DNA from: Bacillota bacterium
Lineage (GTDB): Bacteria; Bacillota; Desulfotomaculia; Desulfotomaculales; Pelotomaculaceae
Reading direction: 5' to 3'
Assembly (NCBI GenBank): GCA_029555205.1
Contig: JAKPTB010000149.1
Coordinates: 10,993-74,992 of the forward strand
DNA length: 64,000 bases
Each line of letters starts with the position of its first letter. The stretch's first letter is position 1. The notes under the pieces are model-generated. The model had not been told where the DNA came from. It saw only the letters and a program-made list of their open reading frames with translations, and made no database searches. This document shows, one piece after another, positions 4,071-47,009 of the stretch. The translations under genes were made by a program, and so were the position numbers.

Positions 4071-4556
4071 TTAACTGGACGGGGGGTTCGTGTTTAATCC
4101 GGCAACTTCCCTGATGATTATGTCATATCCCTCTGTCAGGGTGCTGAATTCGGCATACAGAGGCAGTTCCTCCCGGCTGTCGTAGCGGACGGCATGTCCC
4201 CTGTAAACGCAACGGACCGGCAGGCTTCTTCCTTTATAGTCATAATGCCCGTAGACACGGCACTGGTAGGGCCGGAAGGTATAAATGCCGCATAAGTCCC
4301 CTTCCTGAAAGGGACAGTGGCCGGATGTACCTCCCCAGATATCGATCAGGTCATTACCCGTAAAATCCCGGAACCGTTTCATTTTAACACGATTATTAAT
4401 GCGTCTGCCAATATTCTCCATTTCCAGCGGGTACACCCTCAATACTGAAGTAACCTTACAACACTCACCGCATACTCCGCAGTCTTTCTTGGATGATTGC
4501 AGGTACAGATCGAGCTTTTCATAAAAGCTGTTGAGCTTTTTCAGCAACGAGTCCAT
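4071..4556 (-). CDS. YkgJ family cysteine-cluster protein (UPF0153)
   Basis: Contains the DCGVCGECCK motif and has the typical size of 161 aa. Confidence 0.7.
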   Translation of the reverse strand: MDSLLKKLNSFYEKLDLYLQSSKKDCGVCGECCKVTSVLRVYPLEMENIGRRINNRVKMKRFRDFTGNDLIDIWGGTSGHCPFQEGDLCGIYTFRPYQCRVYGHYDYKGRSLPVRCVYRGHAVRYDSREELPLYAEFSTLTEGYDIIIREVAGLNTNPPSS

Positions 4557-4668
4557 CTAAACACCCCCGCTTTCCAGGATCTCTGTTCTTATTATACCAC
4601 ATTCAGGTCAATTATGTAAGATTTAACTTATTATCCACAAATGGTCAGGCCCCAAGGGTGGAGTTTAT

Positions 4669-5955
4669 TTAATGAGTGATTCCTCCATGTTCTCCTGTCT
4701 TTTCCCAGTTGTTTTCAATTTCTTCAAGGATATCCGAGACAAGTTCTTTAGCCATATTTTCAAGTTCCCCCGGCCGGTAGGGCGCAGGACCGGGAGTAGA
4801 GGTTTGCGGCTCCGGAACAGGTTCCGGCCCGGGGTAAGGAGAGGGTTTTTGGCGCATTTTTTGGATCGGTACGACGGGTTTAAGGGCAGTTAGAGGAGTG
4901 GACATAATCCCGTTAAAACGAAGAAAGGCAGCCCGGGGGGAGACGCTGGAGAGTTCAACGGAACGGTAAAGGTCACGGTTAACCCTGCAGGTCATAATAC
5001 AGGGCTGAGGCTCTCCGGGATCAACTTCGTGGTTTATTGCCCTGACCCGTCCGTTGAACACTGCCTGCTCTACCAGCCTGTCCGGGCATGTAAAAAAGAT
5101 CAAATGAATTGCGCTCAGGCTCAGCTGGAGAAGTATTTCCTGGTAGAAATCTGCAAATTCCTGTTCCTTCATTTCCACAGGGGTTATGTCGTGTTCTTCT
5201 TCATCATACTGGTAGAAGATTGTCCGGGGGATTTCATGGGGTGCGCAGAAAACGCCCTCCACTACAAGAAGCCTGTCCTCTTGCTCATAACGGGCATCAA
5301 ATTCCACTTCAAAGGCGTCGGGGTATTTCATTATAGACAGAAATGTCCGGACAAAGCTCTCTACAGCGCCTGGTTGCCCCTTTGCAAGATCTAAACACAG
5401 CTGATCTATGGAATGGTTGTATTGGGACTGCTCTTCAAGAAAGGACTTGCGCTTTAGCTCGTAAGCAGCCCTGGCAGATTTCTCCCTCTGGTGGTATTCT
5501 TCCAGTTTCAAATTAAATAATCGCCTGGCATCCTCTTCCATTTTCAGGCGCCTTTTCCTTAACGAGGGCAGGAAAAATTCCTTGATTGGATCCTTCCGGT
5601 TAATTCCCATTTCCCTGGCAATCAGCTCATATCTGGGAAGGGGTTCTTTAAAGACAAAAGGAGGATAAGGCTCATCTTTGTAACAGGAAATCCAATCAAA
5701 TTTTCCGGCGGCGAGATTGTTCCGGAGTATGTTTTTACACTCCTCGATGTATTTCTTTGCCAGTTCACTTTCGTATTTCGCCAGTTCCTTTAAGCTCTCC
5801 GTTTCCTCACGTTCTTTTTGTTGTCTTTCTCCCCTGGCTATGCGGACAGCCCTTAATTCTTTTTTTACCCTTTGTTCCAGCAGGGATGAACCTGTGCTTG
5901 CCGGTATTGAGTCAAGGTTAGAGCCGTGAGGGTTTTTTTCTAAATCTGCACTCAA
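4669..5955 (-). CDS. hypothetical protein (charged coiled-coil N-terminus, central alpha/beta region, Pro-rich linker, acidic C-tail)
   Basis: 428-aa ORF with a TTG start preceded by GGAAAGGAGAGAG. I recognised no family motif. Confidence 0.6.
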   Translation of the reverse strand: MSADLEKNPHGSNLDSIPASTGSSLLEQRVKKELRAVRIARGERQQKEREETESLKELAKYESELAKKYIEECKNILRNNLAAGKFDWISCYKDEPYPPFVFKEPLPRYELIAREMGINRKDPIKEFFLPSLRKRRLKMEEDARRLFNLKLEEYHQREKSARAAYELKRKSFLEEQSQYNHSIDQLCLDLAKGQPGAVESFVRTFLSIMKYPDAFEVEFDARYEQEDRLLVVEGVFCAPHEIPRTIFYQYDEEEHDITPVEMKEQEFADFYQEILLQLSLSAIHLIFFTCPDRLVEQAVFNGRVRAINHEVDPGEPQPCIMTCRVNRDLYRSVELSSVSPRAAFLRFNGIMSTPLTALKPVVPIQKMRQKPSPYPGPEPVPEPQTSTPGPAPYRPGELENMAKELVSDILEEIENNWEKTGEHGGITH

Positions 5956-26244: not shown

Positions 26245-27516
26245 TCAGGCATCTCTGTGCGCTCCGTTCGGGTACTTGATTACACGGTGCTCCCATGTTC
26301 TGAGGGAAATGTATTCTTCGTCCCTGTCCAGGATGTACTGGGGCAGGACCGGAGTTTTGCCGTACCCGTTGGGGGTATTGATAATATAGGACGGAACCGC
26401 CAGACCTGAGGTGTAACCGCGCAGCTTTTCCATGATTTTTATGCCGTCATCGACACTTGTGATAAAATGACCGGTGCCCTTTACCTGTTTAGCGTGAAAA
26501 ATATAGTAGGGACGAACCCGGATTTTCAGCAGTTCGTGGTTTAGTTTTTTCATAATTGAAGGCGTGTTGTTGATTCCTTTCAACAGGACGGCCTGATTGC
26601 CCAGAACCACACCGGCGTTAACCAGCATCTCACAGGCAAGGGCGGCATCACGTGTAATCTCGCGGGGATGGTTAAATTGTGTATTAATATATAACGGTGG
26701 ATGTTTCTTTAATATGGAGCAGAGGTCACGGGTAATTCTTTGAGGCATCGTAACGGGTGTTCTTGTCCCGAGTCGCTTAATCTCCACATGCTTGATCCTG
26801 TCCAGTTCAGTCAGTAACCAGTCAAGGTAGCTGTCACTCAGCAAGAGGGCATCCCCACCGGTGATCAAAACGTCCCTTATTTCCCTGTTTTCCCTGATGT
26901 ATTGAAGCGCTTTCCGGATGGCGCTGTTCGATCTGTGCCTGTCGATTTCTCCGATATTGCGCCTGCGCTGGCAGTGTCTGCAGTACATGGCGCACTGGTT
27001 GGTAACGTTGATGATCAGCCTGTCCGGGTAACGCCGGGTTATACACGGGGCAGGGGAGGTATATTCCTCAGCCATTGGGTCACTTTGGCCCGTTTCCGCC
27101 AGTTCGTCGACACTTGGAACGGCCTGGGTCCAAATGGGGTCTGCGGCGTTCCTTTCATAAAAAAGTGAAGCATAATAGGGAGAGATGGACCAGCGGTATT
27201 TTAAACCCACCCTCTTTATGTTTATAGATGTTTCTTTGTTGATACAGAATATTTTGGAAAGTGTTACGACATCATGAATACGGTTTGACATTTGCCAGCG
27301 CCAGTCTTGCCAATCTTTCCAGGTTGCGTTGAATATATTCAAGATCCTTTTCTTGTTTTCCAGGATGTTGTTTTCCAGGTCAAAGCCGGTTTTGATAGTT
27401 TCTTTTTCTTCCAGATAGTCACTTATTCTCTCTTTCAATTCCGCTGCCCGGTTTAAGGCAATAACCGTCCTGTCATCCTGGGATACTGTTATTTGCTGCG
27501 GGGCATTTAATGACAT
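26245..27516 (-). CDS. KamA-family radical SAM aminomutase, probable glutamate 2,3-aminomutase
   Basis: CAMYCRHCQRRR cluster motif. The positions aligning by eye with LAM Asp293 and Asp330 read Lys (FHAKQVKG) and Asn (IINTPNGYGK). Confidence 0.6.
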   Translation of the reverse strand: MSLNAPQQITVSQDDRTVIALNRAAELKERISDYLEEKETIKTGFDLENNILENKKRILNIFNATWKDWQDWRWQMSNRIHDVVTLSKIFCINKETSINIKRVGLKYRWSISPYYASLFYERNAADPIWTQAVPSVDELAETGQSDPMAEEYTSPAPCITRRYPDRLIINVTNQCAMYCRHCQRRRNIGEIDRHRSNSAIRKALQYIRENREIRDVLITGGDALLLSDSYLDWLLTELDRIKHVEIKRLGTRTPVTMPQRITRDLCSILKKHPPLYINTQFNHPREITRDAALACEMLVNAGVVLGNQAVLLKGINNTPSIMKKLNHELLKIRVRPYYIFHAKQVKGTGHFITSVDDGIKIMEKLRGYTSGLAVPSYIINTPNGYGKTPVLPQYILDRDEEYISLRTWEHRVIKYPNGAHRDA

Positions 27517-27902
27517 TCTATCCCTCCTTATATTACTAACAAAAAGAATAACCCCGGTTAAACGAATCCGTTCCGGGGCAAGGAAAAAATGTCAAACAGC
27601 CGGTTGTTATCTACAACAGGGCAGTTCTCCTCCCTTTCCACGCTTGCGAAGTTAGCTGACGGATTCGGATTGAAAAGTAACCCTACGGAATCAGACCGGC
27701 TTAATTGAATAATTATTTAAGGAAGATTTTAATTCCTTGATAATCATTCTTGAGCCACTCAAGAGACCGATCCCGATTCACCCCAAAAACCTGGTTCCCC
27801 CGCTTCTAGAAGAATTAAGCGATCAGAGGATGTTATGCGATTATTATTATTTTCAATTTTTTGCCTGCAACTTATTATAGCATGATAAGTTGTTGGTTGC
27901 AA
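27517..27902 (-). promoter_or_regulatory. sigma-A promoter plus structured 5' leader of about 350 nt (unassigned riboswitch/attenuator candidate)
   Basis: On the minus strand: TTGCAA (27902..27897), 17-nt spacer, TATAAT (27879..27874). An upstream CCGAAUCCGU segment is complementary to ACGGAUUCG inside the terminator, which could act as an antiterminator. Confidence 0.55.
27541..27578 (-). terminator. leader terminator immediately upstream of the aminomutase gene
   Basis: On the minus strand: CCCCGG-aacggattcgtttaa-CCGGGG followed by ttattcttttt. It lies about 25 nt before the RBS. Confidence 0.7.
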
Positions 27903-30047: not shown

Positions 30048-31157
30048 TTGAATCAAAGGAACTTGATTATTCTGGCTGGAAGTGTCTTCGGCCTTTTAGC
30101 GATTCTCCTGGTCAAGTTCGGCAACCCGCCCAATATGGGTTTTTGCATCGCCTGTTTTTTAAGAGATGTTACCGGTGGGCTGGGTTTACACAGGGCTCCT
30201 GTGGCTCAATACATCCGCCCGGAAATCCTGGGGCTGGTGCTGGGAGCTTTTGCAGCGGCCATGGTTACCAGGGAATTCCGGTCCCTCGGCGGTTCCAGCG
30301 CACTTACCCGCTTTGCTCTCGGCTTCGTTGCCATGATCGGGATGCTGGTTTTCCTGGGTTGTCCCCTGCGTGCTATTTTACGTCTTGCGGGCGGCGACCT
30401 GAACGCCTTGCTAGGTTTAGCCGGATTGGTGGCGGGAGTGGCCCTGGGAATTCCCTTTTTGCGGAAGGGCTTTTCCCTGGGCAGGGCTTTGCCTCAAAAT
30501 AAGGCAAATGGCTATATCTTTGTCGGAATCATAATTTTTCTACTGATCCTTTTGCTGGCCAAGCCTGCATTTATTTACTTCAGTACGGAGGGTCCCGGGT
30601 CAATGAGGGCTCCCCTGGCCTTGTCCCTGGGTGCAGGTCTGCTGGCAGGTTTCCTGGCCCAACGCTCAAGGCTCTGTCTGGCCGGCGGAGTCAGGGATTT
30701 CATTTTATTCAGGGATTTTTACCTGCTCTACGGCTTTATTGCTATACTGGTTGTCGCCTTCTTGGGAAACCTGGTCCTGGGCAACTTTAAACCTGGTTTT
30801 GCAGGTCAGCCCATTGCCCACAGCGACGGTCTTTGGAGTTTTCTCGGTATGATGCTGGCGGGCCTCTGCTCTGTTCTCCTGGGCGGTTGTCCCCTGCGGC
30901 AGCTTGTATCTGCATCAGAGGGCAACACTGATTCCGCCGTAACTGTAATTGGTTTAATGACAGGGGCCGCTTTCGCCCATAATTTCGGTCTGGCCGCAAG
31001 TGCCAAGGGGGTCCCCGCAGCAGGCCAGGCGGCGGTATTAATAGGATTCGTACTTGTTTTAACTATAGCATTCTTTATCTGCAAGGCCAATCTAACAGCA
31101 CGGGAGGTGAGCGCCGGTGGAAGAAATAAAGGACGCGCGGGGGCTACTCTGTCCTGA
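30048..31157 (+). CDS. yedE: YedE-family putative selenium metabolism membrane protein
   Basis: GNPPNMGFCIACFLRD N-terminal motif, polytopic, paired with yedF. Confidence 0.8.
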   Translation: MNQRNLIILAGSVFGLLAILLVKFGNPPNMGFCIACFLRDVTGGLGLHRAPVAQYIRPEILGLVLGAFAAAMVTREFRSLGGSSALTRFALGFVAMIGMLVFLGCPLRAILRLAGGDLNALLGLAGLVAGVALGIPFLRKGFSLGRALPQNKANGYIFVGIIIFLLILLLAKPAFIYFSTEGPGSMRAPLALSLGAGLLAGFLAQRSRLCLAGGVRDFILFRDFYLLYGFIAILVVAFLGNLVLGNFKPGFAGQPIAHSDGLWSFLGMMLAGLCSVLLGGCPLRQLVSASEGNTDSAVTVIGLMTGAAFAHNFGLAASAKGVPAAGQAAVLIGFVLVLTIAFFICKANLTAREVSAGGRNKGRAGATLS

Positions 31158-31329
31158 ACCCTTACTAATCACCAAGCAGGAAATGGAGAGACTGGGTGGC
31201 GGTACCTTTAAAGTCCTGGTCAATACGGCTGCTGCCAGGGATAATATCACCCGTCTCGCTAAAAACCAGAACTGGAAGATTGAAGTTTCAGAAAAGGACG
31301 GGGAATATTTACTTACTCTCACAAAATAA
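31117..31329 (+). CDS. yedF: sulfurtransferase-like selenium metabolism protein YedF (TusA fold)
   Basis: 70 aa with the DARGLLCPEP (CPxP) motif. The GTG start overlaps the end of yedE. Confidence 0.8.
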   Translation: MEEIKDARGLLCPEPLLITKQEMERLGGGTFKVLVNTAAARDNITRLAKNQNWKIEVSEKDGEYLLTLTK

Positions 31330-40576: not shown

Positions 40577-41977
40577 ATGTTAAACCGGCTCTTGCGTACT
40601 ATATTTATGGCTATGATCTTGATTATGACCATACCGGCTTTTGCCCGGGCGGAAGAAGCGGCCGGTGCTGCTGCGGGGGCTGCCGTCGATACAGGTGACA
40701 CGGCGTTCATTCTCATCTCCGCGGCACTGGTCATGCTGATGACGCCCGGCCTGGCTCTTTTTTACGGCGGCATGTCCCGGACGAAACATGTACTAAGCAC
40801 AATCATGTATAGTTTAATAGCTCTGGGTGCTGTCAGTGTCCAGTGGGTAATGCTTGGTTACAGTCTCTCTTTTGGACCGGACGTGGGCAGTTTGCTGGGA
40901 AGCCTGGACTGGCTGGGGCTGAAAGGTGTCGGCCTGAAGCCGAGTGATTCCTACGCTACCACGGTACCGCATCAGGCTTTTATGGTTTTTCAAATGATGT
41001 TTGCGGTTATTACAGCGGCTCTGATATCCGGGGCTGTTGCGGAAAGGATGCGTTTTTCCGCATTTCTGGCCTTCATCCTGTTCTGGACGACGTTTATTTA
41101 CGACCCCGTTGCCCACTGGGTCTGGGGCGGGGGCTGGCTGGCTCAAATCGGGGCTCTCGACTTTGCCGGCGGTACCGTTGTTCATATTCTGTCGGGTGTT
41201 TCCGGCCTTGTGGCCTGCATCATCATCGGCAAGCGGAAGGGGTACGGCAGTGAGCCCATGATTCCCCACAACCTGCCCATGACCGTCACGGGGGCAGCGC
41301 TGCTCTGGTTTGGCTGGTTTGGTTTCAATGCGGGCAGTGCCCTTATGGCGGACGGTAGAGCCGTCAGCGCCTTTGTTGTAACCCACGTAGCCACGGCCTC
41401 GGCACTGGTTTCCTGGATAACTGTTGAATGGATCCGCCACGGCAGGCCCACCGTCCTCGGCGCCGTCTCCGGCGCAGTTGCAGGCCTGGTGGCGATCACC
41501 CCCGCCTCTGGTTTTGTTGACCCCATTGCAGCTATCATTATCGGCCTGGTTGCAGGTGCGGTGTGCTGCCTGGCAGTCAGTTCCCTAAAAAGAAAGCTGG
41601 GTTACGACGACTCCCTCGATGCCTTCGGCGTACATGGTATAGGCGGGACATGGGGGGCCCTGGCCACCGGTATCTTTGCCAACCCGGCTGTAAATGAATT
41701 GGGCGCCGGACTCTTGTACGGCAACGCCAACCAGGTGGTCATCCAGCTAATCAGTATCGTTGCCAGCTGGGCGGTGGCAGCGCTGGGAACCTTCGCAATT
41801 CTAAAGCTCATTGGACTTGTTATCCGCCTGCGTGCTACCGATGAAGAACAGGAAGCCGGCCTGGATATATCACAGCATGGGGAAGATGCTTATACTGGTT
41901 TAGCCTCGGGCACTCCCTTAGGCGCCGGCGGGCTACCTGCCGTCCAGGCTTCCAGTGTGATGAAACCTGCCTTATAG
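40577..41977 (+). CDS. amtB: ammonium transporter
   Basis: Signal peptide, then DTGDTAFILISAALVMLMTPGLALFYGG...FAGGTVVH...AFGVHGIGG. Confidence 0.95.
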   Translation: MLNRLLRTIFMAMILIMTIPAFARAEEAAGAAAGAAVDTGDTAFILISAALVMLMTPGLALFYGGMSRTKHVLSTIMYSLIALGAVSVQWVMLGYSLSFGPDVGSLLGSLDWLGLKGVGLKPSDSYATTVPHQAFMVFQMMFAVITAALISGAVAERMRFSAFLAFILFWTTFIYDPVAHWVWGGGWLAQIGALDFAGGTVVHILSGVSGLVACIIIGKRKGYGSEPMIPHNLPMTVTGAALLWFGWFGFNAGSALMADGRAVSAFVVTHVATASALVSWITVEWIRHGRPTVLGAVSGAVAGLVAITPASGFVDPIAAIIIGLVAGAVCCLAVSSLKRKLGYDDSLDAFGVHGIGGTWGALATGIFANPAVNELGAGLLYGNANQVVIQLISIVASWAVAALGTFAILKLIGLVIRLRATDEEQEAGLDISQHGEDAYTGLASGTPLGAGGLPAVQASSVMKPAL

Positions 41978-42116
41978 GCTGGTGCGGAGCCCGGGGCGAA
42001 GGCTTCCGGAATAAGCTTTGGGCTTTCAAATATAAGAAGAAGGATGTGGCAAAGAGAAAACCAAACTGCGATCAATGGCTAATAAGGTTTAATAAAGCAG
42101 CAAAGGAGGTAATCCC

Positions 42117-42455
42117 TTGACTAAAATTGAATGCATCCTGCGGCCGGGCAAGCTGGAGAACGTTAAAGAGGCAATTAACAACTACGGTATTCACGGGATG
42201 ACTGTAACCCAGGTGATTGGCTGCGGGCTGCAGAAGGGGCGCACTGAGGTTTACCGCGGAACCGAGTACAGTATTAACCTTTTGCCGAAAATCAAGCTGG
42301 AAATGGTCGTTCCCGATAAAGATGTGGAAGACATCATCAACATTATCAGTATAGCGGCCCATACCGGGGAAATTGGTGACGGCAAAATCTTTACTTATAA
42401 AATTGACAATGCCCTTCGAATCAGGACCGGTGAAACCGGAGACATTGCTATTTAG
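42117..42455 (+). CDS. glnB: P-II nitrogen regulatory protein
   Basis: 112 aa with a TTG start. KIECILRPGKLENVKEAL-type N-terminus, T-loop GRTEVYRGTEY, and DGKIF...RIRTGE. Confidence 0.95.
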   Translation: MTKIECILRPGKLENVKEAINNYGIHGMTVTQVIGCGLQKGRTEVYRGTEYSINLLPKIKLEMVVPDKDVEDIINIISIAAHTGEIGDGKIFTYKIDNALRIRTGETGDIAI

Positions 42456-42906: not shown

Positions 42907-43015
42907 AAAAAAATGGAGAGCCCCAGCTACAAGCCAGGGCTTCCTTTAGGGGGAAGAAGCGGAATCGAACCGCGTAGCGGGCCCCGGACCTCGCTGTGTT
43001 CCCGACACTCTTCCC
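42907..43015 (-). ncRNA. tRNA-like small RNA (8-bp acceptor-like stem and canonical T-arm, no anticodon arm) with its own terminator
   Basis: GGGAAGAG...GCGG-UUCGAUU-CCGC-UUCUUCCC at 43015..42951. A terminator hairpin at 42944..42915 is followed by U7 at 42913..42907. Confidence 0.55.
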
Positions 43016-43022
43016 GGGAATC

Positions 43023-43050
43023 ATTATACCATCAATTACCAGTATTTGAA
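43023..43050 (-). promoter_or_regulatory. extended -10 promoter of the tRNA-like RNA
   Basis: On the minus strand: TTCAAA, 16-nt spacer, TGgTATAAT. The RNA 5' GGG begins 7-8 nt downstream. Confidence 0.55.
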
Positions 43051-43174: not shown

Positions 43175-43203
43175 GCGAACTTCAGGGACATCTGCAGCGT
43201 CTA
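43175..43203 (+). promoter_or_regulatory. ECF-type autoregulated promoter candidate
   Basis: GAAC, 17-nt spacer, CGTC, about 40 nt upstream of the ECF sigma gene. Confidence 0.4.
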
Positions 43204-43242: not shown

Positions 43243-43797
43243 ATGACGGGAGTAAGAATCTTGCCGGAAAAGAATCTGATCGCAGCAGCCCAATCAGGAG
43301 ATAGTGATGCCTTTACCCAGCTGGTGCAAAGGTATTCTTCGGACGCGTACCGTACAGCGTACATGGTTCTGCACGACCGCGAAGATGTGGAAGACGTGGT
43401 CCAGGAAGCTTTTTTAACCTGCTACAGGAAAATAAATACATTCCGAATGGATTCTTCCTTTAAGACATGGTTGTACCGGATTGTGGTAAACCTGTGTTAT
43501 GACCGGATCCGCAAGCGGAGTCGCGAAAGAGCGGCATTCCAAAGGGTGTCTATTAATATGAAGACCGGGTATAGAGATATGTCGGATATAGAAAAGCGCA
43601 TAGACTTGAAGGAAGTTATAGCAACATTGAATCCTGACTACCGGATTACCCTTACCCTTTATTATGGGATGGACTTCAGCGTGCAAAAAGTTGCAGAGGT
43701 ACTGGGCATTCCGGTGGGCACTGTGAAATCCAGATTGAATTCCGCACGCAACTTGCTTAAAGAACGCTTGGAAAGAGGACATAAGTATGCGTTGTGA
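43243..43797 (+). CDS. ECF-subfamily RNA polymerase sigma-70 factor
   Basis: Region 2 (DVVQEAFL...YRIVVNLCYD) and region 4 (KVAEVLGIPVGTVKSRL), 184 aa. Confidence 0.9.
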   Translation: MTGVRILPEKNLIAAAQSGDSDAFTQLVQRYSSDAYRTAYMVLHDREDVEDVVQEAFLTCYRKINTFRMDSSFKTWLYRIVVNLCYDRIRKRSRERAAFQRVSINMKTGYRDMSDIEKRIDLKEVIATLNPDYRITLTLYYGMDFSVQKVAEVLGIPVGTVKSRLNSARNLLKERLERGHKYAL

Positions 43798-45878: not shown

Positions 45879-47009
45879 ATGGCCAAAGGAAGGCTGATTA
45901 AGGTTTTCCCTGGTGGAAACACCGCCTACGGTTTTTACTCATTTTATGATCATATAATCGAACCGGACGCTGCCCGTATTTTCGTAATCAAGGGCGGTCC
46001 GGGCGTGGGTAAGTCCACATTCATGAGGTATATCGGTGAGGCCATGCTGAAAAGGGGCTACGATGTGGAGTTTCACTGCTGCTCATCGGATAACGGTTCA
46101 CTGGACGGAGTCGTTATACCGGTCATCCGTGTGGCCCTGCTTGACGGCACAAGCCCGCATATCGTTGATCCAAAGAATCCGGGTGCAGTGGACCAGATTA
46201 TCCACCTGGGAGACCACTGGAACGAGAAAGGAATCAGGGGAAACAAAAAGGAAATTCTCTCTGTTAACAAAGAACTGGGCCGCCTATTTAAACATGCATA
46301 CGCTTATCTTGCAGCGGCAAAGCTATTCCTTGATGAGGTGGAATCCTACTATAATGAAAGCAACGCTTTTAATGTGGGTGCTTTCGATAAAATGGTTCTG
46401 AATTTAATCCATGAAATCTTTGAGGGAAAGCAAAGGGTTACAGAGAGTCCGAAAGCACGTCACCTTTTTGCCACGGCAATTACTCCGGACGGTTCAGTCA
46501 GTCACCTGGAAACAGTCGTCGATCACCTTCAGAAGCGCTATATTATCAATGGCGATGATGGAACAGGAAAAACTACTTTAGTGAGACGTTTGATGGAGGC
46601 AGCTTTAGCCAGGGGGTTTAACATTACTGCCTTTCACTGTGCGTTAAACCCCAAGGTGATTGATCACCTGGTTATTCACGACCTGAGCCTGGCCATAATT
46701 AACAATGTTGAGCCACACATATACACCCCAAAGGAAGGCGATACCATAATCGATACAATGAACTGCGTTGATCCTGTGATTAATGAAGCCTACCTGGTCG
46801 AAAAAGGCCTGGCCCGCGGAATGTACCGGCAATGTATGGAACAGGCAATTTCTTTCATCAGCAGGGCCAAAAAAACCCACGATGAGATGGAGAAGTATTA
46901 TGTGCCTTTCATGGACTTTGAGGCAATCAACTTAAGAAGGGAAAAGACCCTCCAGCTAATTTTGGATACAGCAGAGCAAATTGATGAGTCAACCCCGGCT
47001 CTGAAATAG
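45879..47009 (+). CDS. PRK06851-like ATPase with two P-loop-like motifs, function unknown
   Basis: GGPGVGKST and GDDGTGKTT motifs, 376 aa. Conserved hypothetical protein in Firmicutes. Confidence 0.65.
   Translation: MAKGRLIKVFPGGNTAYGFYSFYDHIIEPDAARIFVIKGGPGVGKSTFMRYIGEAMLKRGYDVEFHCCSSDNGSLDGVVIPVIRVALLDGTSPHIVDPKNPGAVDQIIHLGDHWNEKGIRGNKKEILSVNKELGRLFKHAYAYLAAAKLFLDEVESYYNESNAFNVGAFDKMVLNLIHEIFEGKQRVTESPKARHLFATAITPDGSVSHLETVVDHLQKRYIINGDDGTGKTTLVRRLMEAALARGFNITAFHCALNPKVIDHLVIHDLSLAIINNVEPHIYTPKEGDTIIDTMNCVDPVINEAYLVEKGLARGMYRQCMEQAISFISRAKKTHDEMEKYYVPFMDFEAINLRREKTLQLILDTAEQIDESTPALK

Follow-up and report, generated by a model that had tools for sequence, protein, structure and literature searches.

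The transcription unit between glnB and the ECF sigma gene

The window, meaning the whole 64,000-nucleotide stretch of DNA analysed here, contains a gene-free gap between the end of glnB at position 42455 and the start of an ECF sigma gene at 43243. The gap, given as 790 bp in the first-pass annotation, measures 787 bp from these two gene ends. Within it lies a compact unit on the minus strand (43050..42907), for which a promoter, a 65-nt RNA, a 6-nt spacer, a 13-bp hairpin and a U7 tract had been proposed. Every feature was re-read base for base, and each is present on the minus strand where it had been placed. The promoter (43023..43050) is of the sigma-A type as found in the window clade, with a -35 element TTCAAA at 43050-43045, a 16-nt spacer and an extended -10 element TGgTATAAT at 43031-43023; the promoter scan gave it 10 of 12 matches plus the TG motif. 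The tRNA-like RNA itself (43015..42951) is identical in sequence to the 65-nt species originally read. It is followed by a single-stranded, A-rich linker, CCUAAA (42945..42950), which in relatives measures 5-12 nt and is mostly A. Beyond the linker stands the 3' hairpin GGAAGCCCUGGC-loop-GCUGGGGCUCUCC (42915..42944), found by the terminator scan, with 13 bp, a tandem U.G/G.U, a bulged C and a variable loop, and the U7 tract (42907..42913) lies 3' of it.

Taken by itself, the window sequence is weak evidence for an RNA gene. The four-helix fold first suggested is indeed the minimum-energy fold of the 65-mer, whose fold z-score is only -1.2; that of the 109-nt transcript reaches -2.3. About 1.1 occurrences of the T-loop motif per window are expected by chance, and the promoter and terminator scans showed no enrichment of promoter-like and terminator-like sites in the region. 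The unit occurs once in the 64-kb window. The case for a genuine RNA gene rests on conservation and covariation across more than 30 related sequences.

Conservation and covariation among relatives

Over 30 distinct homologues, each locus carrying a single one, were found in Pelotomaculum and allied Desulfotomaculaceae genomes and metagenomes, together with one more distant Bacillota-like contig (individual loci are cited here by L numbers). The carriers include the cultured P. propionicicum and P. terephthalicicum JT. Across an alignment of 30 sequences, the proposed pairs are formed in 95.0% of cells, as against 43-58% when the partners are slid. Both-side, compensatory changes occur at ten pairs against a shuffle mean of 4.3, and the observed covariation score was reached by 0 of 500 shuffles, although the sampled diversity is narrow, about one family-level clade, so that these shuffle statistics overstate independence. 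RNAalifold independently gives the same helices. Conservation in relatives and compensatory changes in the acceptor and T stems had been put forward as a check, and both are found across the 30 aligned sequences. The RNA is also kept across lineages whose flanking proteins share only 62-70% identity. It is wholly absent from L064, the syntenic orthologue locus of a relative, and is thus dispensable in that lineage; the sigma paralogue locus L063 likewise has no RNA.

Frequent G.U pairs (4:69 in 13 and 5:68 in 12 of the 30 sequences, as well as the tandem U.G/G.U of the 3' hairpin) identify the minus strand as the RNA strand. A protein-coding explanation was rejected, as all six frames of L019 contain stops and the length differences among members are not multiples of three. 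A mobile-element origin was also set aside: a pattern scan of viral contigs returned 0 matches, and Blastn against phage and plasmid records yielded only short chance matches. Conservation climbs at G1 and stops at the final base of the 3' hairpin. Comparative sequence analysis indicates that this is a real small RNA gene of Pelotomaculum-type bacteria, with defined boundaries, its own predicted promoter and a structure under selection.

The tRNA-like module

The 5' strand of the acceptor stem, GGGAAGA (43009..43015, minus strand), pairs with UCUUCCC (42951..42957, minus strand; pairing at 42957-42951), after which a C at 42950 occupies the 'discriminator' position; this pairing is taken from the 30-sequence alignment. 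All seven acceptor pairs vary among the 30 sequences, four of them by changes in both partners, with pairing in 91% of cells. Outside the window clade the 5' strands include GGGGGGA, GAGGAGG and GGGAGCA, and in L003, L019 and L026 the pairing register has moved by one. The T-arm, C-GCGG / UUCGAUU / CCGC-U (42958..42974, minus strand), carries a canonical T-loop closed by G53-C61, and GGUUCGAUUCC with this closing pair is invariant across the family alignment. Its stem varies: pair 49:63 is A-U in 12, G-C in 12 and G-U in 3 of the 30 sequences, and pair 48:64 is C-G in 18, U-A in 3 and U-G in 2. In the window clade the fifth T-stem position holds a C.U mismatch, which accounts for the apparent 8-bp acceptor and 4-bp T-stem of the window; 23 of the 30 sequences have a standard pair there, and in the consensus of the family a canonical 7-bp acceptor adjoins a 5-bp T-stem (7/5). 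The canonical acceptor and T-arm first recognized are therefore genuine, while the 8-bp/4-bp arrangement does not extend beyond the window clade.

The position directly 3' of the acceptor is not conserved: among the 30 sequences, 14 have A there, 10 have U, 5 have C and one has G. Pair 3:70 is G-C in 27 of 30, leaving no G3.U70 alanine identity pair. A shifted identity pair, G4.U69 or G5.U68, was considered and rejected, each being found in under half of the members. The absence of an encoded CCA, noted for the window, holds across members.

Directly inside the acceptor sits a D-like hairpin, GUGU-CGGGA-ACAC (42996..43008, minus strand), with a 4-bp stem and a 5-nt loop in which GGG is invariant; these G residues are presumed to be the equivalents of G18/G19 that contact the T-loop. 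No equivalents of tRNA A14 and R15 are present. The hairpin shows no variation in 20 genome-derived sequences, and the rare stem variants preserve pairing through wobble (U-A to U-G in L049 and L062; G-C to G-U in L054), with changes in L051 and L053 confined to the loop bases beside GGG. The position of the anticodon and variable arms is taken by a closed hairpin, AGCG-A-GGUC-CGG-GGCC-CGCU (42976..42995, minus strand), of 8 bp with one bulged A. Across the family this central hairpin has 8-9 bp and a loop of 3-5 nt that varies in size and sequence. Pairs 25:44, 26:43 and 29:38 show compensatory changes, and in L024 the central sequence is wholly swapped for CAGUG...CACUG with the hairpin retained. 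None of the members has a 7-nt anticodon-type loop in this hairpin, so the initial observation that an anticodon loop is missing holds for every member. On sequence grounds, this first module would have the outline of a tRNA and cannot read codons.

The likeness to tRNA could nonetheless be superficial if CGGGAAC of the D-like arm paired with GUUC..CCG of the T-arm, a fold that is not tRNA-shaped at all. L027 and L024 adopt this pairing in their minimum-energy folds, and it survives C13U, A17G (L051) and A18G (L049, L062) through wobble pairs. Against it, both the window RNA and L005 fold at minimum energy into the four-way junction, which RNAalifold also gives as the consensus, and the strongly covarying T-stem pairs 48:64 and 49:63 are incompatible with the D/T helix. 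L053 A17U, moreover, disrupts the alternative pairing, and L054 C21U keeps the D-stem as G.U. The natural variants are few and discriminate incompletely between the two folds, of which the non-tRNA-shaped one appears distinctly improbable.

Transcript ends and the 3' hairpin

Near-consensus promoters of the form TTGACA-17/18-(TG)nCATAAT precede the RNA in 25 of 31 members, bearing out the description of a unit that stands alone, with a promoter and a hairpin/terminator of its own. In these members the -10 box ends 13-22 nt ahead of G1, compared with 7 nt in the window, a geometry shared by L030 and L053. A start exactly at the acceptor 5' end, as first proposed, thus suits the window clade and not the family at large, and the accompanying expectation that no RNase P leader exists is wrong for most members, which carry a 5' leader by the position of their -10 box. 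Because of this difference in distance, a shared mature 5' end needs processing. In the many lineages with a leader of 6-15 nt, RNase P would be the enzyme that produces it. A switch in which leader UUCCU pairs with AGGAA at the hairpin base was rejected, since the UUCCU-type motif is missing in five members (L007, L013, L019, L024 and L026) while GGAAG is invariant.

The first-pass annotation regarded the 3' hairpin as a plain terminator, whereas it is the most conserved part of the unit. It is paired in 99.7% of cells, and 9 of its 13 pairs are invariant among the 30 sequences. Together with the AAAGGAAG segment it reaches a column conservation of 0.91-0.99, against 0.79-0.82 for the acceptor strands. 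An intrinsic terminator consists of a G+C-rich stem-loop followed by a U-tract; the window conforms with its U7, and the tracts of relatives vary between 7 U and as few as 2 U in 9 nt, as with 'gauuacacc' in L027 and L060. In L005 the linker pairs with the U-tract in the minimum-energy fold, resembling a bidirectional terminator. The hairpin may double as an intrinsic terminator stem, but because the U-tract is poor in many members, termination alone is insufficient to explain an invariance that exceeds its needs. Nor is the hairpin a dispersed REP-like repeat, as each locus has one copy and so has the window.

These properties bear on the reading in which the tRNA-like module is only a maturation or stability signal. 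RNase P would trim the leader and RNase Z would cut 3' of the acceptor, releasing the A-rich tail (with AAAGGAAG) and invariant hairpin as a regulatory sRNA or protein-binding hairpin. A similar logic operates in tRNA-linked 3' external spacers and in MALAT1/mascRNA. Besides the superior conservation of the hairpin and AAAGGAAG and its excess over what termination requires, the single-stranded linker and absent CCA are the configuration that RNase Z takes; RNase Z of Firmicutes accepts a single-stranded linker lacking CCA. However, the D-like and T loops are equally invariant and would not be needed by a mere handle. No complementary target was found, and the seed would usually lie in the hairpin loop, which is variable; GGAAG is buried in the base of the stem. 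This reading is considered unlikely.

Genomic neighbours

The genes beside the RNA at the loci examined include alr, amt-glnB and an ECF sigma/anti-sigma pair. The orientation of the RNA relative to alr is reversed in L019, L026 and L027, and L024 has different neighbours altogether. Across the related loci compared, no conserved neighbour hints at function. Its own promoters, flipped orientation, changing neighbours and sharp conservation limits mark the RNA as an independent gene. The glnB setting emphasized at first is incidental, as amt-glnB is missing from many loci. The genes yedE/yedF do lie in the window, as reported, although 11.6 kb away and in none of the related loci that were fetched. 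Functional linkage to glnB, the ECF sigma gene or yedE/yedF was therefore rejected, none being a constant neighbour, as was a link with the MFS gene next to L024, an outlier, since four loci with MFS homologues carry no RNA.

A structured domain followed by a terminator is also the layout of a riboswitch, and the element might act in cis, either as a riboswitch-like leader or as a bidirectional terminator shared by its neighbours. In many loci the hairpin sits between convergent genes with an A-tract and a U-tract on its sides. A riboswitch regulates a same-strand downstream gene, and only L019 and L026 have such a gene, an amidase gene in the orientation of the RNA; there is none in the window, L001, L003 and others, where the next gene is convergent. 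As the RNA also has its own strong predicted promoter and variable neighbours and orientation, a cis-acting role is very improbable.

Comparison with known RNA families

ARAGORN reported no tRNA or tmRNA gene, either in the window or in the 29 member loci scanned, and Rfam gave nothing at gathering thresholds for the window region and six other members. At E values up to 10, Rfam returned only sub-threshold matches to terminator-like families, tRNA-Sec and the tmRNA T-arm. A literature search on Pelotomaculum tRNA-like RNAs, the invariant blocks and anticodon-less tRNA-like small RNAs found no description of this RNA. It matches no described RNA family, in keeping with its being left unassigned at first, and the ARAGORN and Rfam results bear this out. 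Set beside a canonical tRNA, the family has the 7-bp acceptor, the contiguous 5-bp T-stem (with C.U as the fifth pair in the window clade) and the GUUCRANYC T-loop. The anticodon arm with its 5-bp stem and 7-nt loop, a conserved discriminator base and an encoded 3' CCA are all absent.

The best Rfam match in the window is tRNA-Sec (RF01852), at 17.5 bits against a cut-off of 47 (E = 0.66), and the six other members have no match to it. As in tRNA-Sec and allo-tRNAs (8/5, 8/4 or 9/3), the window clade can be drawn with an 8-bp acceptor, a 4-bp T-stem and a variable-arm-like hairpin, and like some selC genes the window RNA begins GGGAAGA. Bacterial tRNA-Sec, however, has a 13-bp acceptor/T domain (8/5), a 6-bp D-stem with a 4-nt loop and a UCA anticodon, and allo-tRNAs retain anticodons and function in translation (PMC7609411). 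The family instead has a 7/5 arrangement, a D-like arm of 4 bp with a 5-nt loop, and no anticodon loop; unlike either tRNA-Sec or allo-tRNA, it has no anticodon arm whatever. The early reading as selC accordingly fails, and the GGAAGAG start and 8-bp acceptor offered in its favour are peculiar to the window clade. It is likewise extremely improbable that the RNA is a functionless, decayed tRNA or selC pseudogene that has lost its anticodon arm. Ancestry from a tRNA is plausible, and tRNA-Sec is, below threshold, the top match. Yet stem covariation and invariant loops contradict the notion of a decayed selC, as do conserved promoters, sharp boundaries, the divergence of the flanking proteins over which the RNA persists, and the restriction of the Sec-like traits to one clade.

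With tmRNA (SsrA), the RNA shares an open acceptor built from its own 5' and 3' parts, a canonical T-arm, a reduced D region, and a different helix in the anticodon-stem position with no anticodon. The tmRNA 5' end is produced by RNase P (PMC3985003). Weak Rfam matches of other members fall on the tmRNA T-arm (cyano_tmRNA, 13 bits against a cut-off of 70). The RNA differs from tmRNA in having no G3.U70, no encoded CCA, no tag reading frame and no pseudoknots, with merely a 20-nt hairpin between the D and T arms. It is also some 100 nt long, compared with about 360 nt, and its 3' end runs on into the conserved hairpin.

The bacterial Y RNA YrlA does not decode either and imitates the D-arm, T-arm and acceptor of tRNA; in M. 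smegmatis its acceptor measures 7 bp and RNase P cleaves the RNA (PMC4201824). Its ends form a Ro60-binding stem with a GNCGAA motif, its acceptor-like stem is closed, and its gene adjoins rsr (PMC4201824). The present RNA is similarly a non-decoding, tRNA-like module with a 7-bp acceptor, but the topology is reversed: it has an open acceptor and a closed anticodon position, whereas YrlA has a loop-closed acceptor and free ends at the anticodon position. It has no GNCGAA Ro-binding motif and no Rfam YrlA match, and no rsr gene lies among the neighbours examined. Transcripts of the mascRNA type and tRNA-linked 3' spacers are eukaryotic or by-products of true tRNA operons. As in the mascRNA type, a tRNA-shaped module here carries extra flanking RNA, may be bounded by RNase P and RNase Z, and may have its function in the flank. 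Unlike both, it is a stand-alone bacterial gene with its own predicted promoter.

Proposed function

The explanation that best accommodates these features, to which we assign slightly less than an even chance, is a lineage-specific, non-decoding tRNA mimic. It would be encoded by a single-copy sigma-A gene of Pelotomaculum-type Desulfotomaculaceae and act in trans as an RNA of about 100-110 nt. Of the readings originally offered, that of a tRNA mimic thus remains the best. The first module would be a tRNA-shaped four-way junction of about 65 nt in which a 7-bp acceptor stacks on a canonical 5-bp T-arm. The invariant GGG of the short D-like hairpin could lock onto the T-loop to form the tRNA elbow, and the closed hairpin of 8-9 bp would replace the anticodon arm. 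The second module would comprise the A-rich linker and the near-invariant 13-bp hairpin, which would also end transcription. Such a non-aminoacylated mimic might occupy, in trans, a protein or enzyme that recognizes the tRNA acceptor, T-arm or elbow, with the invariant 3' hairpin serving as a second recognition or stabilizing element. We infer that the RNA folds into an L, is processed by RNase P, acts in trans and is not charged. The cellular RNase Z and CCA-adding enzyme might process the RNA by default, an outcome that would favour a processing signal or an amino-acid carrier.

A carrier would arise if RNase P, RNase Z and CCA addition yielded a species of about 75 nt, charged by an anticodon-blind synthetase and used as a non-ribosomal donor in, say, peptidoglycan or envelope chemistry. 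The RNA keeps an intact acceptor/T minihelix and elbow, and M. smegmatis YrlA provides a precedent, being cleaved by RNase P and CCA-tailed in vivo (PMC4201824). Fem-family cell-wall aminoacyl transferases use aminoacyl-tRNAs and have been studied with acylated RNA helices as donors (PMC2655667). The neighbours also lean towards the envelope, with ald-alr upstream, the ECF sigma/anti-sigma pair, Amidase_3 downstream in L019 and L026, and an M23 peptidase in L024. Conversely, the discriminator position is unconserved (A14/U10/C5/G1), G3.U70 is replaced by G-C in 27 of 30 sequences and no CCA is encoded. Selection just 3' of the acceptor is strong, the opposite of a discarded trailer, and the neighbours are inconstant, with no Fem-type transferase seen nearby. 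Such a carrier seems doubtful, and that the RNA is a synthetase-charged, anticodon-less 'tRNA' of about 75 nt dedicated to non-ribosomal amino-acid donation, as in envelope or peptidoglycan chemistry, has only a slim chance of being correct. The presence of ald-alr, amidase, M23 peptidase and ECF sigma genes as neighbours is a hint in the direction of an amino-acid donor.

Significance

To our knowledge, bacteria have few tRNA mimics that are not themselves tRNAs, and the main ones are tmRNA and the Y RNAs. Each of these opened a new part of RNA biology. The family described here represents a third architecture, combining an open acceptor, a T-arm and an elbow with a capped anticodon end and a sequence-invariant 3' hairpin. 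Its general importance is limited by its narrow distribution and by its loss in at least one related lineage. Were the amino-acid donor reading true, the RNA would be the first aminoacyl carrier found in nature that is structurally barred from decoding. Its presence in cultured P. propionicicum and P. terephthalicicum JT makes the RNA directly accessible to experiment. As a compact substrate of about 100 nt, it may show which of the enzymes that handle tRNA (RNase P, RNase Z, the CCA-adding enzyme, modification enzymes, EF-Tu and the synthetases) need just the top half of a tRNA in vivo.

Architecture and distribution of the RNA

The elements named in the first-pass annotation are all present on the minus strand: a promoter recognized by sequence and promoter scan (TTCAAA-16-TGgTATAAT; 43050-43023), a 65-nt tRNA-like RNA (GGGAAGAGUGUCGGGAACACAGCGAGGUCCGGGGCCCGCUACGCGGUUCGAUUCCGCUUCUUCCC; 43015-42951), a 6-nt spacer, a 3′ hairpin of 13 bp with one bulged C (42944-42915) and a U7 tract (42913-42907). 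The four-helix structure proposed there is also the minimum-energy fold of the 65-mer. Taken alone, the single window sequence is a weak case for an RNA gene, because the fold z-scores are modest (-1.2 for the 65-mer, -2.3 for the full transcript), chance alone would yield the T-loop word roughly once per window, and the region is no richer in promoter-like and terminator-like sites than shuffled sequence.

The ECF sigma factor encoded beside the RNA places the organism among Peptococcaceae or Pelotomaculum, and three orthologues of it (87%, 69% and 65% identical) all have the same RNA nearby, on the other strand. One genome per GTDB species was scanned with the two invariant loops as anchors, which gave 27 loci (20 with the full architecture and 7 chance matches); the members belong to Pelotomaculum or Desulfotomaculaceae, among them the isolates P. 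propionicicum C1 and P. terephthalicicum JT. Some 15 further close relatives came from metagenomes, scanned with the T-loop and the 3′ hairpin arm as anchors. The RNA is also present in Candidatus Syntrophopropionicum ammoniitolerans (locus L062, on a 2.6-Mb contig), where it is intact despite the splitting of alr, yjeF and the sigma gene into several ORFs each, most likely through frameshift errors of long-read assembly. A covariance model detects a single copy at each locus and a single copy in the 64-kb window.

A full member occurs at locus L024, whose MAG bears the label Deltaproteobacteria bacterium DeMMO5_3. Since its MFS protein has its named relatives in Bacillota (Desulfofundulus, Pelotomaculum, Desulfoscipio), L024 probably represents a more distant Desulfotomaculia lineage, and the taxonomy assigned to the bin or contig is doubtful. 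The syntenic amt-glnB to sigma locus L064 (sigma 61% identical) has no trace of the RNA in its 620-bp gap (4380-5000); in that lineage the RNA was lost or never gained. Nothing related was found in phage, plasmid and viral collections, and the distribution is narrow.

Family structure and its conservation

The family consensus begins with a 7-bp acceptor stem, followed directly and without a linker by a D-like hairpin (GUGU-CGGGA-ACAC), a central closed hairpin of 8-9 bp with a 3-5 nt loop, a single nucleotide, and a T-arm with a 5-bp stem and the loop UUCGAUU, which leads into the acceptor 3′ strand. The next base is variable (A14/U10/C5/G1), no CCA is encoded, and an A-rich linker of 5-12 nt precedes the 3′ hairpin, GGAAGCCCYGGC-loop-GCUGGGGCUCUCC. 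The RNA has no anticodon loop, encoded CCA or conserved discriminator. That it is a CCA-ended, charged but non-decoding carrier is improbable.

Some features first described from the window are particular to its clade. The 8-bp acceptor and 4-bp T-stem hold there because the fifth T pair is C·U, but give way to 7 and 5 bp in the family; the GGAAGAG start is likewise confined to that clade. A transcription start at the first acceptor base (G1) also stands for the window clade but not generally, as 25 of 31 members have a near-consensus promoter farther upstream (TTGACA-17/18-(TG)nCATAAT) that ends 13-22 nt before G1, implying a 5′ leader of ~6-15 nt.

Covariation was assessed in a model-guided alignment of 30 distinct sequences, fitted to the structure and hence biased towards it, in which standard pairs form in 95.0% of cells, against 43-58% when the 3′ partners are slid by 1-3 columns. 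Both-sided changes were observed at ten pairs against a shuffle mean of 4.3, and none of 500 shuffles reached the observed covariation score or percentage paired. A plain MAFFT alignment of 20 sequences gave 92.8% paired against ~47%, and RNAalifold independently returned the same helices. Covariation is clearest in T-stem pairs 49:63 (A-U in 12 sequences, G-C in 12, G-U in 3) and 48:64 (C-G in 18, U-A in 3, U-G in 2), in the acceptor, which varies by lineage (GGGAAGA/UCUUCCC, GGGGGGA/UCUUCCC, GAGGAGG/UCUCCUC, GGGAG/CUCCC), and in the central hairpin, which L024 keeps with its sequence entirely exchanged. The frequent G·U pairs place the RNA on the minus strand. A coding explanation was tested and fails.

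The D-like and T loops are invariant apart from single changes, none touching GGG, a pattern expected if a GGG-to-T-loop elbow contact were selected. Complementarity between D and T segments could instead support an alternative fold, which we consider improbable. Conservation is ~0.4-0.7 upstream, 0.8-0.99 from G1 to the final base of the 3′ hairpin, and falls to ~0.4 within ten bases beyond it. Together, these comparisons show a real RNA gene which, judged from its sequence, is independently transcribed and structurally constrained, with tRNA acceptor, T-arm and elbow features.

The 3′ hairpin

Conservation in the 3′ hairpin exceeds that in the acceptor stem: 9 of the 13 hairpin pairs are invariant, as are a tandem U·G/G·U and the bulged C, and the loop ranges from 3 to 9 nt. 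The U-tract that follows ranges from 7 U down to 2 U in 9 nt, and the A-rich linker is able to pair with it, as in bidirectional terminators. Termination accounts for the presence of the hairpin, not for its sequence invariance. The hairpin may therefore be the effector, with the tRNA-like part serving as a processing handle, a reading that we rate as unlikely but the strongest of the alternatives. A dispersed-repeat origin of the hairpin was ruled out. Separately, long near-perfect hairpins immediately adjoin the RNA gene in two related loci (L051, 225-298; L060, 1052-1140); these give 27-48-bit matches to unrelated microRNA-precursor models and may be large terminators or small inverted-repeat elements.

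Genomic neighbourhood

In the window the RNA is flanked by amt (40577-41977) and glnB (42117-42455) and by the ECF sigma gene (43243-43797) with its zf-HC2/DUF4367 anti-sigma gene. The divergent neighbour is a sigma gene in most loci. In L019, L026 and L027 the RNA lies directly downstream of alr on the same strand, its orientation relative to alr being the reverse of that in other loci, and with no sigma gene, and the neighbours in L024 differ from those of other loci. The gene neighbourhood tends towards alanine and envelope functions (ald-alr, Amidase_3, M23 peptidase, the ECF sigma pair), and none of these is constant among the loci compared; a purely cis-acting element is very improbable.

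Only some loci have the amt-glnB cassette, and the DNA 3′ of the RNA forms a site with variable cargo (window 40577-42455; L001, L003, L005, L007, L008, L020, L028), either empty with alr adjoining or holding amt-glnB. In L005 a 116-aa ORF and two GDT1 genes accompany amt-glnB, with what appears by eye to be a Mn2+ riboswitch ahead of them; an Rfam Manganese match was returned in L040 only, below threshold (33 bits, cut-off 45).

An ECF-type promoter (GAACTT-N15-CGTCTA; 43177-43203, plus strand) lies ~40 nt upstream of the ECF sigma start codon and is kept in relatives, including L001 and L003, so that the sigma/anti-sigma operon looks autoregulated. The RNA promoter is distinct from it, being of sigma-A type and on the opposite strand. 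Downstream of the anti-sigma gene, 45879-47009 (plus strand) encodes a 376-aa protein with two P-loop/STAND-like NTPase signatures, conserved at varying positions in the close relatives L001, L009, L030 and L029. Elsewhere in the window, a full-length c-di-AMP (ydaO/yuaA) riboswitch (27625-27831, minus strand; 94 bits, cut-off 38) lies upstream of an ORF at 26245-27516 (minus strand).

Relationship to known RNAs

The checks with Rfam and ARAGORN proposed in the first-pass annotation were run, and no known RNA accounts for the unit. ARAGORN called neither a tRNA nor a tmRNA, whether in the window or at 29 related loci, and Rfam gave no match at the position of the RNA at gathering thresholds. 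When E is relaxed to 10, tRNA-Sec ranks first with 17.5 bits (cut-off 47), and the rest are terminator-like small-RNA families. The tRNA-Sec match is absent from six other members, which match nothing but the T-arm region of a tmRNA model, at 13 bits. As the RNA fails every defining test for tRNA-Sec, that identity is rejected, and a decayed selC or other tRNA is the least probable reading of all. The yedE/yedF-like pair cited in the first-pass annotation does lie in the window (30048-31329, plus strand; Sulf_transp and TusA domains), but 11.6 kb from the RNA, and it is in none of the related loci fetched.

The reading that we favour, tentatively, is of a tRNA mimic. The RNA would fold into an L-shape, and its 5′ end would be generated by RNase P, for which a 7-bp acceptor stem is the main determinant in cleavage of a bacterial tRNA-like RNA (PMC4201824). 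It would stay uncharged and act in trans on a partner that recognizes the acceptor, the T-arm or the elbow, the invariant 3′ hairpin serving as its second module. The tRNA-like domain of tmRNA is alike in topology, but this RNA lacks G3·U70, a tag frame and CCA. YrlA is likewise a non-decoding tRNA mimic, but its topology is opposite and its Ro-binding stem has no counterpart here (PMC4201824). Literature searches found no description of this RNA, which belongs with the bacterial tRNA-like non-coding RNAs.
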